DNA of 36,282 nucleotides from an uncultured archaeon (GCA_964373695.1 CAYJVT010000005.1:21628-57909); one strand, 5' to 3'. Positions 83 through 25,566 are shown, numbered from the stretch's first letter. Notes: generated by a model not told the origin, from the letters alone. Numbers and translations are program-made.

Positions 83-154
83 AAATGAACAATGAAACAA
101 GTTTCATTTCAATTTTCGAGACGGAAGTATATGAGGTGTTTCAAAAATGAACAA
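83..154 (+). repeat. Start-codon-associated insert, copy 1 (hairpin AATGAAAC-AA-GTTTCATT + mini-hairpin + AGGTGTTT SD), flanked by direct repeat aaatgaacaa
   Basis: aaatgaacaa at 83-92 and 145-154; 91-115 is identical over 25 bp to 22478-22502. Confidence 0.8.
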
Positions 155-338
155 AAAAGCAATGATTCTTGTGATGCTTGTGCTTGCATCAATGGTCTTC
201 ATAAGCGGCTGCACTTCCCAATCGCAACTTGGCGACGTGAAATCGCAGGAAGACGTGCAGAAGACAGTGACGGAAGTCAGCACCAGAATTGAAAACGTTG
301 AATCGACTCTGAAGGACATCGATTCCAAACTGGGATAG
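147..338 (+). CDS. Small secreted/lipoprotein-like protein (hydrophobic N-terminus ending ISGC, coiled-coil C-terminus)
   Basis: 63 aa; K-rich start, hydrophobic core, SGC lipobox-like motif; SD aggtg upstream. Confidence 0.75.
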   Translation: MNKKAMILVMLVLASMVFISGCTSQSQLGDVKSQEDVQKTVTEVSTRIENVESTLKDIDSKLG

Positions 339-345
339 CTTTAGC

Positions 346-771
346 ATGAAAAGAAAAAACAGGGTAGCTCTGCCTGGGCGCATTGGCTGGCCCATCCTGA
401 TTTTTCTGGTTTTCTGGGACGCTTTCATCACGTACAGGGGAGGAAGGGAGGGCAATCCCATTTGGCAGCCATTTGTAAATGCGCTGGGGATTAATGCGCT
501 TTGGCTTCTGGCTGTTCTGGCGCTCGCGCTTTTTTATATCGTTATTAAACTAGCCGGCAGATATGTAAAATATCCGGAAGGCGAGGAGCTTGTCCTCACA
601 ACGTTTGTAATCGCTTTCGCAACATACGACCTTTACATCACGTTCCTGCTGCCTTATTACGGCTTTCTCGGCTCGCGAAGTCATTATTACATAATCCCGG
701 TGCTGATAGTGCCTGTGCTTGCGTACAATATCTGGTTTGAGTACAAAAAACGCAGGGCGAAGAGTAATTAA
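346..771 (+). CDS. Hypothetical multi-pass membrane protein (D..IT....EGNP motif, DUF5658-like)
   Basis: 141 aa with ~4 hydrophobic segments; WDAFITYRGGREGNPIW motif. Family assignment is from recall. Confidence 0.7.
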   Translation: MKRKNRVALPGRIGWPILIFLVFWDAFITYRGGREGNPIWQPFVNALGINALWLLAVLALALFYIVIKLAGRYVKYPEGEELVLTTFVIAFATYDLYITFLLPYYGFLGSRSHYYIIPVLIVPVLAYNIWFEYKKRRAKSN

Positions 772-793
772 TCTTTCCTTTCCAATACAAATC

Positions 794-1384
794 ATGCAAA
801 AACACGAACTTCTTGAGGAACTGCGCCTCCAAGGCATTCCGGAAAACGTGATAAACGCCATGAAGAAGGTGCCGAGGGAGGATTTCGTCCTTCCCGAGGA
901 TATCGACAGGGCATATTGCAACTACCCCCTTCTTCTTCACGAAGGCCAGACGATATCACAGCCCCTGACCGTTGCGCTGATGACCGGATGGCTTGATGTT
1001 AAGCCTGGTCATAAAGTGCTTGAGGTCGGCGCCGGAAGCGGCTACCAGGCCGCAATAATATCTGTTCTTGCCGGCCCCAGCGGCGAAGTAATTACGTGCG
1101 AAATCAGAAAAAAGCTTTACGAATTCGCCAAGAGGAACCTCGAAAGATACAGTAACGTCAGAGTCGTCCATACAAACGGCTCAAAAGGCTACAACGGCAA
1201 ATTCAACAGGATAATGCTCACGGCCTCGGCCAAAAAGATGCCAGACGCCCTTCTTGGTCACCTGAAGGAATGCGGCAGGGCCGTGCTTCCTGTAGGCGAC
1301 GAGATGTACCTTGTGGAGAGAAAGGACGGGAAATTCACGAAAGAAGTGAAGGGCTATTTCGCCTTCGTGCCGCTGGTTGAATAG
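794..1384 (+). CDS. pcm: Protein-L-isoaspartate O-methyltransferase
   Basis: VPRE.F, GQTISQP and VLEVGAGSGYQAA (SAM motif I); ATG at 794 (MQKHELLEEL) chosen within the longer ORF 719-1384. Confidence 0.92.
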   Translation: MQKHELLEELRLQGIPENVINAMKKVPREDFVLPEDIDRAYCNYPLLLHEGQTISQPLTVALMTGWLDVKPGHKVLEVGAGSGYQAAIISVLAGPSGEVITCEIRKKLYEFAKRNLERYSNVRVVHTNGSKGYNGKFNRIMLTASAKKMPDALLGHLKECGRAVLPVGDEMYLVERKDGKFTKEVKGYFAFVPLVE

Positions 1385-1385
1385 G

Positions 1386-1637
1386 TCACTTATAGATATT
1401 TTTCCTATGACCAATTTCTATGACCAATATCGTCATTATTTCATTATTTATATCTATAATAATCCTGTAATCCCCGACACGAAGCCTGAAATATTTATAA
1501 CCAGAAAGCTTTTTCACAAAATCATATGGCCTTGTTTTAACCCTCTCCAAAACAACCAATATGCGTTCTTGGACATTTCTATCAAGATTTTTTAATTGGT
1601 CTTCTGCTTTTGAGGTAAATTGTATTTTATACATCAT
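1386..1637 (-). CDS. relE: RelE/ParE-family type II toxin
   Basis: YKIQFTSKAEDQLKNLD...RLRVGDYRII...IEIGHRKNIY is a typical RelE/StbE signature. Confidence 0.92.
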   Translation of the reverse strand: MMYKIQFTSKAEDQLKNLDRNVQERILVVLERVKTRPYDFVKKLSGYKYFRLRVGDYRIIIDINNEIMTILVIEIGHRKNIYK

Positions 1638-23615: not shown

Positions 23616-23731
23616 GAAACGGAATAATATTCCGTTTTATTGCTCAGAGAACAGGGGTTCTCTGGCATCTCAAAAGAGATACCTCTTTTGCAGATTTCGA
23701 AACGAAAGATTCGAAGGTGTTTCAAAAATGA
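23610..23731 (+). repeat. Start-codon-associated insert, copy 3 (three extra hairpins), flanked by aaatga
   Basis: aaatga at 23610-15 and 23726-31; hairpins AAACGGAAT/ATTCCGTTT, CAGAGAAC/GTTCTCTG and CAAAAGAG/CTCTTTTG, then GCAGATTTCGAAACGAAAG..AGGTGTTT. Confidence 0.75.
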
Positions 23732-24399
23732 AGGAGCGAATATTCATACAGAAAGCGAAGGAGCATATAGGACTCGAGGAGTTCATACGCTCCCAGTTCA
23801 GGCAGGCTAAGGTCGGGGACATCGAGATACAGCACACGCCTGTTGTCACCAGGATAGTGCTCTACACGACGACTCCAGGCCTCATCATAGGCAGCGGCGG
23901 GGAGCGCATAAAGGAAATGGCGGAAATCATAAAGGACAAATACAAGATCGACAACCCGCAGATAGATGTCCAGAAGATAGAGGAAGCCGATCTGGACTCG
24001 ACGATAGTCGCGCAGTCAATAGCAAACCAGATAGAGGGCGGCGTCAACTACAAGAGGCTGGGGAATTATTACCTCGACAGGATAATTCAGGCAGGGGCCA
24101 CCGGATGCGAGATAATAATAACAGGAAAGCTTTCCGGCGAGAGGTCCAGGAGGGAGAGGTTCTACGCCGGATACCTGAAGAAGTGCGGCGAGCCGGCAAG
24201 AAGGGAGGTCATGAAGGGCTTCGCACTGGCAAACCCCAAACTGGGAAACATAGGGATAACTGTGAAGATAATGACGACGCGCCCGGACAATATTATGAGC
24301 ATAAAGGAGCCGCAGAATCCAGAACCTGCAAAGGCCGGACAAAAGGAGAAGACGAAAGATGGCAATACTCAAGATGAAGAAGATAAGGGAAATGAGTGA
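23728..24399 (+). CDS. rps3: 30S ribosomal protein S3 (uS3)
   Basis: TPVVTRI, PGLIIGSGG.RI, GATGCEI..TGKL.GER and GNIGITVKI. Confidence 0.96.
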   Translation: MKERIFIQKAKEHIGLEEFIRSQFRQAKVGDIEIQHTPVVTRIVLYTTTPGLIIGSGGERIKEMAEIIKDKYKIDNPQIDVQKIEEADLDSTIVAQSIANQIEGGVNYKRLGNYYLDRIIQAGATGCEIIITGKLSGERSRRERFYAGYLKKCGEPARREVMKGFALANPKLGNIGITVKIMTTRPDNIMSIKEPQNPEPAKAGQKEKTKDGNTQDEEDKGNE

Positions 24400-24583
24400 G
24401 AAAGAGCTCGAAGAGAAGAGAAGGGAGCTGATGCTCGAGAAGTCAAAGGAGATAGCGTCGGCCGAGATAGGCGGCACCGTGAAGAATCCCGGAAGGATAC
24501 GCGAGATAAGGAGGACAATTGCCAGGATGAAGACGCACGCATCCGCGAAAGCCGGCGAAAAGGGAAGAGGTGGTATTAAGTAA
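24359..24583 (+). CDS. rpl29: 50S ribosomal protein L29 (uL29)
   Basis: MAILKMKKIREMS...NPGRIREIRRTIARMKT. Confidence 0.95.
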   Translation: MAILKMKKIREMSEKELEEKRRELMLEKSKEIASAEIGGTVKNPGRIREIRRTIARMKTHASAKAGEKGRGGIK

Positions 24584-24885
24584 TGGTATGCCCCAAGTGC
24601 GGCCTTCCGGAGGAACTTTGCGTCTGCGAGATCATAGCAAAGGAAGTCCAGAAAATAAAGATAACCTTCATGCAGAAAAGGTACGGAAAGTACGTTACCA
24701 TCATAAGGGGAATCGACCCGAAGAAGATAGACGTGAAGGAGCTCATGAGGAAGCTGAAGTCGAAGCTCGCATGCGGCGGCACGTACAAGAACGGCGAAAT
24801 AGAGCTCCAGGGCGAGCACAGGGAAAGGGTGAAGAAAATACTGATAGAGGAAGGCTTCCAGAAGGACATAATCGAGGTGGCCTGA
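24583..24885 (+). CDS. Translation initiation factor SUI1/aIF1 (stress response YciH-like)
   Basis: CPKCGLPEELCVCE, KRYGKYVT, LKSKLACGGT and IELQGEH. Confidence 0.96.
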   Translation: MVCPKCGLPEELCVCEIIAKEVQKIKITFMQKRYGKYVTIIRGIDPKKIDVKELMRKLKSKLACGGTYKNGEIELQGEHRERVKKILIEEGFQKDIIEVA

Positions 24886-25160
24886 TGAGGACGCCCGAAA
24901 ACATACTGATGCACGAGCTCATAGGGCTCAAGTGTGAGGTAATGGCGTCCCTCAACAAGTCCCAGACAGGGATTTCCGGGAGCATCGCCGACGAGACGAT
25001 GAAAAGCATCGTCATCGAGAGCCCTGACGGAAGGAAGACGGTGCCGAAAAACGGCACGATATTCCGTGTCTCGTCGGGTTCGTGGAAGGCCGACATCGAC
25101 GGCAGCGCGATAGTTGCAAGAAGCGAGGACAGGATAAAGAAAAGGATTTCAAGATGGTGA
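24885..25160 (+). CDS. rnp1: Ribonuclease P protein subunit Rpp29 (Rnp1/POP4)
   Basis: HELIGL, GISG.I.DET, VPK.GT.F and IDG.AI..R.EDRI. Confidence 0.92.
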   Translation: MRTPENILMHELIGLKCEVMASLNKSQTGISGSIADETMKSIVIESPDGRKTVPKNGTIFRVSSGSWKADIDGSAIVARSEDRIKKRISRW

Positions 25161-25224
25161 AAATCTGTGGGGAATTGAAAATTCTCCAAGACATTCAAAA
25201 CGGAATTAGAGGTGTTTTGAAAAT
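25158..25224 (+). repeat. Start-codon-associated insert, copy 4, flanked by tgaaaat
   Basis: tgaaaat at 25158-64 and 25218-24; hairpin GGGGAATT-GAA-AATTCTCC, then ATTCAAAACGGAAT..AGGTGTTT. Confidence 0.7.
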
Positions 25225-25566
25225 ATGGCAAAGAAAAAAGTCAATGATATCGGGATAGAAGCCAAGGCTCCGGCCGGAGCCTGTGATGGCGAGAAGTGCC
25301 CCTGGCACGGGCGGCTGAAGATACGCGGCAGGATATTCGAGGGAAAAATCGTCTCGAGCAAGCCGTCCAACACGGCCATAATCTCGTGGAACTACTACAA
25401 TTACGTGCCGAAATACGAGAGATACGAGAGGAGAAAGACGAAGATAGAATCCCACAACCCGAAGTGCATAGACGCCAGGGCCGGCGACACGGTAAGGATA
25501 GGGGAATGCAGGCCGCTTTCCAAGTCGAAGAGATTCGTCGTGTTTGAGAAGGTGCTGGAAGAATGA
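25225..25566 (+). CDS. rps17: 30S ribosomal protein S17 (uS17)
   Basis: CPWHG.LKIRG, PKYERYERR and AGDTV.IGECRPLSKSKRFVV. Confidence 0.97.
   Translation: MAKKKVNDIGIEAKAPAGACDGEKCPWHGRLKIRGRIFEGKIVSSKPSNTAIISWNYYNYVPKYERYERRKTKIESHNPKCIDARAGDTVRIGECRPLSKSKRFVVFEKVLEE

Follow-up and report, generated by a model that had tools for sequence, protein, structure and literature searches.

Short inserts that duplicate start codons in an archaeal ribosomal-protein operon: a probable non-autonomous insertion element with a putative translational bridge

Short repeats that carry translation signals have been described in bacteria. The Neisseria REP2 repeat and the similar IR of Borrelia plasmids are dispersed repeats of 120 to 150 bp that lack terminal inverted repeats; internal stem-loops lie close to the 5′ end, and the repeats carry a ribosome-binding site (RBS) and an ATG immediately upstream of genes, and the available part of that account describes REP2-type repeats as also promoter-carrying and leaves their origin and mode of spread unexplained (Delihas 2011, PMC3184786). 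MITEs (miniature inverted-repeat transposable elements), along with the Correia, ERIC/RU, BOX, and RUP repeats, are short, multicopy hairpin repeats without a transposase gene, flanked by duplications and polymorphic in presence among close relatives, and sometimes alter the expression of neighbors or carry open frames fused to genes (PMC3184786, PMC2759123). Rickettsia palindromic elements and other in-frame insertions, cited in the first source, are hairpin repeats tolerated within genes with the frame kept open (PMC3184786). Here we describe a family of inserts of about 50 to 120 nucleotides (nt) found at four translation starts in a 36,282-nt stretch of DNA from an uncultured archaeon (GCA_964373695.1, CAYJVT010000005.1:21628-57909; “the window”), whose gene content is that of an archaeal ribosomal-protein operon, L3 through SecY. 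The inserts are probably copies of a small non-autonomous insertion element, mobile now or recently in a DPANN order, that duplicates the start codon at which it lands and leaves a short open reading frame (ORF) that would relay translation across the insert.

Like REP2, the archaeal element lies directly upstream of ORFs, supplies an RBS and a start, and contains internal stem-loops; its host is an archaeon, whereas those of REP2 and the Borrelia IR are bacteria, and sequence homology is not to be expected. The start duplication, the closed bridging ORF, and the stem with a Shine-Dalgarno sequence (SD) in its loop are not mentioned for REP2 in the available part of PMC3184786. MITEs share with it the many short dispersed copies, the absence of a transposase gene, and insertion polymorphism with empty sites, but MITEs have inverted ends and a duplication of fixed length, whereas here the ends are not generally inverted, the duplication varies, and the element is unusual in how strictly it is placed and oriented at start codons. 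As in the Rickettsia elements, the frame stays open, and in the archaeal element the hairpin units are added in 27- and 54-nt steps; the Rickettsia elements become part of the host protein, whereas here the putatively translated stretch is split off by a stop and a new start. A preliminary description of this stretch held that no such element was known. Our literature search, incomplete in coverage, found no archaeal element with such behavior; bacterial repeats carrying an RBS and an ATG are known, and the archaeal element is best seen as a variation on these, with the three features just named as additions that the parts of the literature at hand do not mention.

The four inserts end in one module, as had been claimed: the pattern AGGTGTTTYNRAAA has exactly four matches in the window, at 134, 22521, 23715, and 25210, all on the + strand and each immediately 5′ of an ATG, compared to 0.2 expected by shuffling (none of 100 shuffles reached four). 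Their parts are listed in Table 1. Sites 1 and 2 have an exact 24-mer in common (92-115 and 22479-22502). The basic unit is about 50 to 65 nt, and the short form at sites 1, 2, and 4 equals the long form at site 3 minus 54 nt, the extra piece being a double hairpin; across the family, long and short forms differ by 54 or 162 nt. Copies are mosaic, with a site 1 hairpin identical to that of site 2 and a 3′ half that is about 35% different by eye. The gene behind site 1 (147-338) encodes 63 residues with a hydrophobic N terminus and gave no match above the cut-off in a Pfam search.

Each operon junction was compared across the window genome (G000; 1.02 Mb in 60 contigs), its sister species (G001), and a third congener (G002), and the pattern of filled and empty junctions, a test put forward in the preliminary description, supports insertion. 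Site 1 is filled in G000 and empty in G001, where the upstream stop is followed by 9 nt and a single ATGAACAAG; the insertion is therefore specific to G000. G000 and G001 both have an insert at L22/S3 and at Rnp1/S17; in G002 neither junction has one. At L22/S3 the G002 junction is a plain ATGA overlap, as predicted from removal of the insert and one repeat, and the same overlap occurs in several other members of the family, most of which have at most a few bases there. The L2/S19 junction carries the short form in G000 and the long form in G001 (compared by MAFFT alignment, since pairwise alignment is unreliable here), and the G002 contig ends upstream of S19. At L40e the situation is reversed, G000 being empty and G002 filled, with the flanks of both alignable. 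At every empty orthologous site the repeat is present once only. The inserts at S19, S3, and S17 are older than the split between G000 and G001. At L24/S4e, the hairpin arrays of G001 and G002 begin with the same bases, and a diverged duplication of SD and start flanks them, which suggests a precise loss in G000.

For the family search, an nhmmer profile was used first and then a covariance model, R1, built on alignment A1. The copy counts per genome, which vary with the cut-off chosen, are 7 to 8 in G000, 4 to 5 in G001, and 2 to 3 in G002, with 24 matches in G003, from another genus; the other G000 copies lie on contigs C7, C21, C24, and, weakly, C19. R1 matches 18 of the 44 genomes of the family and, in the scan of the order, 15 of 70 genomes, patchily and in four families; since the copies are related, counts over them are not independent. 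Every copy ends in GAGGTG, 8 nt, and ATG, and nearly all matches stand in a single orientation immediately 5′ of an ATG. An ORF of at least 60 codons follows directly in 41 of the 50 copies whose sequence continues, and the remainder precede short ORFs, some of which are themselves further copies. The hosts, judged by eye from N-terminal residues, are often ribosomal-protein or pilin-like genes. A young subfamily in G003 has at least seven near-identical copies behind unique upstream sequence. In other genera the inspected R1 matches precede other genes, and the L2/S19 and L22/S3 junctions are short or hold inserts that are unlike the module by eye; fixation of the module at the same genes in distant relatives, named in the preliminary description as a sign of an ancient regulatory leader, is not what was observed.

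This distribution bears on whether the inserts are mobile at all. They could instead be an ancient, vertically inherited regulatory leader of highly expressed genes, repeatedly lost, as might be suggested by the S19, S3, and S17 copies common to G000 and G001, by the many ribosomal-protein or pilin-like hosts, by the stem covariation described below, and by strong constraint on the S3 copy. That insert (112 nt) diverges by 8.0% between G000 and G001, compared to 28.7% (119/415) at the fourfold sites of seven flanking genes, and hence is at present under selection. Against such a leader stand the plain ancestral junction seen at site 1 in the sister species, the bare L22/S3 overlap elsewhere in the family, the difference in occupied genes between genera, the young near-identical copies, and the patchy distribution. 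The empty sites already largely refute it, and we consider it very unlikely. The preliminary description had named a cis-acting module as the alternative to a mobile element, and this is partly right as a role acquired later, because the three shared copies predate the G000/G001 split and the S3 copy is under purifying selection. The non-autonomous mobile element that it proposed is supported by the empty sites, the patchy spread, and the site-specific repeats of young copies.

We tested the flanking duplications by comparing the true left and right flanks of 51 copies with mismatched pairs. Among true pairs, 29% have repeats of at least 9 nt and 16% have repeats of at least 12 nt, compared to 8% and 1.7%, respectively, among mismatched pairs, with a median of 6 nt in both sets; a site-specific duplication is demonstrable in about a third of the copies, sites 1 and 2 among them. 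The direct repeats originally reported at all four window sites are present. The 10-nt repeat of site 1 and the 9-nt repeat of site 2 are longer than the null would give, whereas that of site 3 (6 nt) is by itself within chance and that of site 4 is borderline (7 nt as first reported, 8 nt on rescanning). Codon 2 of the bridging ORF repeats codon 2 of the gene at site 1 (AAC) and site 2 (GCA), and this gene-specific codon is therefore not sequence brought by the element. Four of five inspected young G003 copies have exact repeats of 14 to 16 nt (16 to 18 nt by eye with flanks) in which the variable spacer letters agree left and right, and the fifth differs at one letter. Longer repeats are found elsewhere: 17 nt (G023), 21 nt (G050 and G002), and about 25 to 28 nt (S4e). 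The sole constant of the duplications is that the ATG is always included.

A stem around the new SD is better supported than the structure first reported. In A2, an alignment of 47 copies of the 3′ module, its first half (consensus TTYSRAAAC) forms base pairs with the segment from the last G of the SD through the A of the ATG, giving a 10-bp stem with GAGGTG, which matches the 16S 3′ end of G000, in its loop. Stem cells are paired in 84% of cases, compared to 77% in shuffles, and double-sided changes number 40, compared to 12.5 expected (0/500 shuffles in both tests); control stems slid along the alignment are 21 to 62% paired, and three stem positions alternate among AU, GC, CG, and UA. The 5′ hairpin is variable in sequence, and in the S17 copy, in which G000 and G001 diverge by 38%, it is kept by compensatory change. 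In the window genus the new SD differs from the native one, which shows that the insert brings its own SD, in line with the first account; in G003 the SD belongs to the duplicated target.

Two other candidate features were rejected, and a third is doubtful. The mini-hairpin initially placed in the first half of the module exists as complementarity at sites 3 and 4; as a conserved structure it fails, with 54% pairing compared to 57.5% in shuffles of the 47 copies and no covariation, and the long stem takes its place. A TTTATAA-like stretch, seen by eye, lies about 20 nt before the ATG, which would be too close for an archaeal promoter giving a leaderless start. Finally, GGTGTTT is not a signature of the element: inspection by eye shows it, in the form GGTGTTT, 0 to 5 nt, and ATG, at the native S4e start and at about nine further G000 genes, all free of any insert.

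The old ATG is retained, and at the operon sites it abuts or overlaps the upstream stop. ORFs opened by ATGs at the 5′ edge (in copies that are related, and with the old ATG chosen by eye in a few inserts) stop between −20 and +4 of the main ATG in 27 of 40 cases and overrun it in 2, whereas the same count in the two shifted frames is 1/40 and 11/40. The end positions have modes at +1 (ATGA) and −5, and these bridging ORFs are typically 21 codons long, with a maximum of 77. Across 12 inserts there are no stop triplets in the bridging frame, compared to 18 and 14 in the other two frames (binomial P ~2e-6). An open frame in diverged copies, together with a recurrent peptide tail (..EVFxK) and the synonymous nature of 5 of the 7 codon changes between the G000 and G001 S3 bridges, might also point to leader peptides or small proteins whose genes duplicate before other genes. 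The conserved peptide letters coincide with the SD and stem, however, and are accounted for by constraint on the nucleotides; from one subfamily to another, the variable part of the peptide shows no relationship, and about one-quarter of copies have no boundary ATG and about one-quarter have an early stop. We see very little probability in the peptide explanation.

On the reading proposed here, the element inserts a few bases past a start codon and duplicates target sequence that in every case takes in the ATG. The stop of the upstream gene is thereby kept, and the downstream gene retains a complete start with a new SD ahead of it. That SD sits in the loop of the stem, whose 3′ arm runs to the A of the new AUG, and long forms have 27-nt hairpin units added between the 5′ hairpin and the stem. 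The old ATG, which is not silenced, opens a short ORF through the insert that stops at the new start, as ATGA, or slightly upstream of it. The relay that would follow, like the enzyme of insertion, is putative and is proposed from geometry. If the inserts are transcribed and the bridges translated, ribosomes leaving the upstream gene would restart at the old AUG, read the bridge, melt the stem, terminate at the new AUG, and re-initiate, in which case coupling within the operon would survive insertion. The bridging ORF thus probably keeps operon translation coupled. Coupling by termination-reinitiation at ATGA overlaps has been documented in archaea, where it depends on an overlap or on a gap that is very small (Huber et al. 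2019, PMC6728339; PMC10666635). The bridges fit this geometry, as they start at or near the upstream stop and end at ATGA or a few bases from the next start; documented coupling joins neighboring real genes, whereas here the chain would run via a junk ORF made by the insertion. A bolder version, which we offer tentatively, is that of a self-insulating mobile cassette built for translation-through in coupled essential operons: the old-start ORF would be the relay, units could be added only in stop-free steps of 27 nt (9 codons), and the arm complementary to the SD-to-ATG spacer may recognize GGTGTTT..ATG starts as targets.

Should the proposal be correct, a reduced, gene-dense genome with overlapping ribosomal-protein genes can accept insertions in which stop, start, and RBS are regenerated and apparently bridged by a throw-away ORF. 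A true relay would be a natural portable adaptor for translational coupling and a new route for harmless selfish DNA. The element serves as a presence/absence marker among close relatives, and for the annotation of DPANN genomes it is a warning, as gene callers may pick the old ATG or call bridges small proteins. It also offers a tractable case for asking which archaeal enzyme makes start-codon duplications of variable length.

Several observations weigh against an insertion element of this kind. The ORF at site 4 (ATG at 25154) overruns the S17 start by 31 nt, and that of the G002 L40e copy also overruns its start. About two-thirds of the copies have repeats no longer than chance, sharing only AAATGA-like letters. 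The duplications have lengths between 4 and about 28 nt, a spread that speaks against a single classical transposase. The ends are not in general inverted repeats: they match over 6 nt at sites 1 and 2 only, and in the remaining copies a self-contained hairpin, unrelated in sequence, forms the 5′ end. Lastly, no autonomous partner was found, in assemblies that for G001, G002, and G003 are 76 to 81% complete.

Elements of the IS200/IS605 type insert beside a fixed tetranucleotide and make no duplication. The REP/RAYT- and PATE-type repeats derived from them resemble the archaeal element in having a hairpin at each end and a single orientation. They differ from it in that duplications of about 8 to 18 nt are present at sites 1 and 2 and in G003, with gene-specific codons duplicated in G023 as well, and the Y1 transposase of this family is not in the assemblies of three element-bearing genomes. 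That gene occurs in G000 (contig C52) and G050 and was not found in the incomplete assemblies of G001, G002, and the copy-rich G003; TnpB-like genes occur in the three genomes of genus g1, with a sub-threshold match in G050. In the five genomes checked, neither gene co-distributes with the element, and neither was seen to share its ends; the search for a co-distributed transposase, proposed at the outset, tied none to the element in these incomplete assemblies. The Y1 gene of G000 lies at C52:1357-1749, and a hairpin just downstream of it (C52:1750-1790, CCACCGTA..TACGGTGG) looks, on inspection of the sequence, like the CCACCGTCT..ACGGTGG hairpins with which many arrays terminate, frequently at contig ends, which suggests that part of the arrays derives from that insertion sequence.

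The lack of a consistent transposase leads to a different account of the spread, in which templated repair, template switching, or ectopic recombination between leaders would move the inserts, and the apparent targeting of starts would be survivorship: where stop and start overlap in an operon, cells would stay viable only after events in which the junction is duplicated. The wide range of duplication lengths and the mosaic make-up of sites 1 and 2 fit this account. So does a case in genus g6, in which MKHEK, the first five codons of one gene, opens the bridge before a different gene in a second genome, so that the old flank must have moved with the cassette; an unrelated, ORF-bearing L2/S19 insert in G005 also has a 22-nt start duplication. 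On the other hand, at least seven near-identical, clean-edged copies at unrelated G003 genes look like the burst of one active unit, and the near-uniform orientation directly 5′ of an ATG also weighs against this account. We judge transposase-free spread rather unlikely, though it qualifies the original statement that the element targets translation starts: the position at starts is confirmed, and the targeting could be survivorship.

The richness of G000 in tRNA introns raises one further alternative, that the tRNA splicing endonuclease removes the inserts from transcripts as bulge-helix-bulge introns. In a weak test, minimum-energy folds of the four sites leave the flanks unpaired and show no pair of 3-nt bulges around a 4-bp helix. 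The 27 genome matches of the 54-nt cassette (E up to 0.2) overlap no ARAGORN tRNA gene, although many multi-intron tRNAs escape this program. Were the insert spliced out, its new SD and open bridging frame would serve no purpose, and we regard excision as scarcely credible. Rfam 15 at the gathering score matched four tRNAs in the window and no other RNA family.

Table 1. Coordinates of the inserts, their parts, and related junctions in the window
Feature	Position	Strand	Basis or remarks
Site 1, native SD (GGTGAT)	75-80	+	Sequence; just upstream of old ATG
Site 1, left copy of 10-nt target duplication	83-92	+	Sequence; single copy in G001
Site 1, old ATG	85-87	+	Sequence
Site 1, insert, short form	93-144	+	R1 match, E 3e-10; stem covariation; G000-specific
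Site 1, 5′ hairpin	92-107		
Site 1, stem arms	113-122, 138-147		
Site 1, SD (GAGGTG)	133-138		
Site 1, bridging ORF	85-150	+	21 codons; from old ATG to TGA overlapping new ATG (147-149)
Site 1, right duplication copy	145-154	+	Sequence; holds working ATG
Site 2 (L2/S19), short form	22471-22533	+	R1; same insert at same G001 site, +54 nt
Site 2, left and right repeats	22471-22479, 22533-22541		
Site 2, old ATG; S19 ATG	22472; 22534		
Site 2, hairpin	22479-22494		
Site 2, stem arms	22500-22509, 22525-22534		
Site 2, SD	22520-22525		
Site 2, bridging ORF	22472-22531	+	19 codons, stops 2 nt 5′ of new ATG; G001 S19 bridge 37 codons, stops 2 nt 5′ of new ATG
Site 3 (L22/S3), long form	23612-23731	+	R1; empty in G002
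Site 3, old ATG; S3 ATG	23612; 23728		Old ATG overlaps L22 stop
Site 3, 5′ hairpin	23616-23638		
Site 3, 54-nt double-hairpin cassette	~23641-23695		
Site 3, stem arms	23694-23703, 23719-23728		
Site 3, SD	23714-23719		
Site 3, bridging ORF		+	39 codons; TGA overlaps S3 ATG
Site 4 (Rnp1/S17), short form	25158-25227	+	R1; empty in G002
Site 4, hairpin	25169-25187		
Site 4, 8-bp stem	25194-25201/25214-25221		
Site 4, SD; S17 ATG	25209-25214; 25225		
S17/L14 ATGA overlap	25563-25566	+	Empty in G000 and G002; G001, 73-nt insert with 23-codon bridging ORF (ATGA)
L24/S4e junction	26363-26378	+	G000, 10 nt, unoccupied, native GGTGTTT-type start; hairpin arrays in G001 (198 nt; bridge 63 codons, ATGA) and G002 (226 nt; bridge 77 codons, ATGA)
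Array of ~27-nt hairpin units, L3 operon leader	19100-19400	+	Same kind as site 3 cassette units
Second array of such units, upstream of tRNA gene	12620-12850		Strand unspecified

G000 has at least 20 hairpin units of about 27 nt that are similar to those of the cassette, frequently grouped in arrays and located at contig ends. On contig C1 (34010-34110) a single unit stands after codon 4 of a gene, without the conserved module; the residues that follow resemble, by eye, a Rossmann-type nucleotide-binding N terminus. There the old ATG opens an 18-codon ORF, and the gene apparently restarts at a TTG or ATA a few bases past the stop. At loci L005, L013, L015, and L029, which belong to other genera of the family, the junction inserts are bracketed by a distinct hairpin repeat (CCTTTCTTT-loop-AAAGAAAGG).

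Inserts of other kinds were also seen at operon junctions. Between L23 and L2, G000 alone has a 261-nt insert (21523-21783; 10 nt in G001) with an 83-codon ORF (21530-21781) that has no Pfam match; this ORF is also bridging, beginning 7 nt past the L23 stop and ending 2 nt 5′ of the L2 start. The L2/S19 junction of other genera (loci L004, L007, L008, L009, L012, L015, and L017) holds unrelated inserts of 260 to 570 nt, several with small ORFs. At L009 (G005), the two copies of a 22-nt duplication that covers the SD and start of S19 lie on either side of the insert, and an ORF of 9 codons joins the old start to the inserted ORF via ATGA.

Window base 1 directly follows an assembly gap on contig C5 of G000, the run of N just upstream lying inside a gene of repeats rich in Q and Y codons. 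The tRNA genes matched by Rfam lie at 12878-13083, 15546-15666, and 35150-35259; the four are 88 to 121 nt long and therefore carry introns, and ARAGORN without intron mode detects just one of them. For a 76-residue ORF between S19 and L22 (22934-23164), without a Pfam match, tblastn shows presence in each of the genus's three genomes; in the other genera it detected none at that position. The overlap of S3 and L29 (24359-24399) is 41 nt in G000 and G001, and G002 has a 2-nt gap. Between L32e and L19e, an ORF of 54 residues (29524-29688) with two CxxC pairs is conserved in G001 and gives weak, below-cut-off matches to zinc ribbons.

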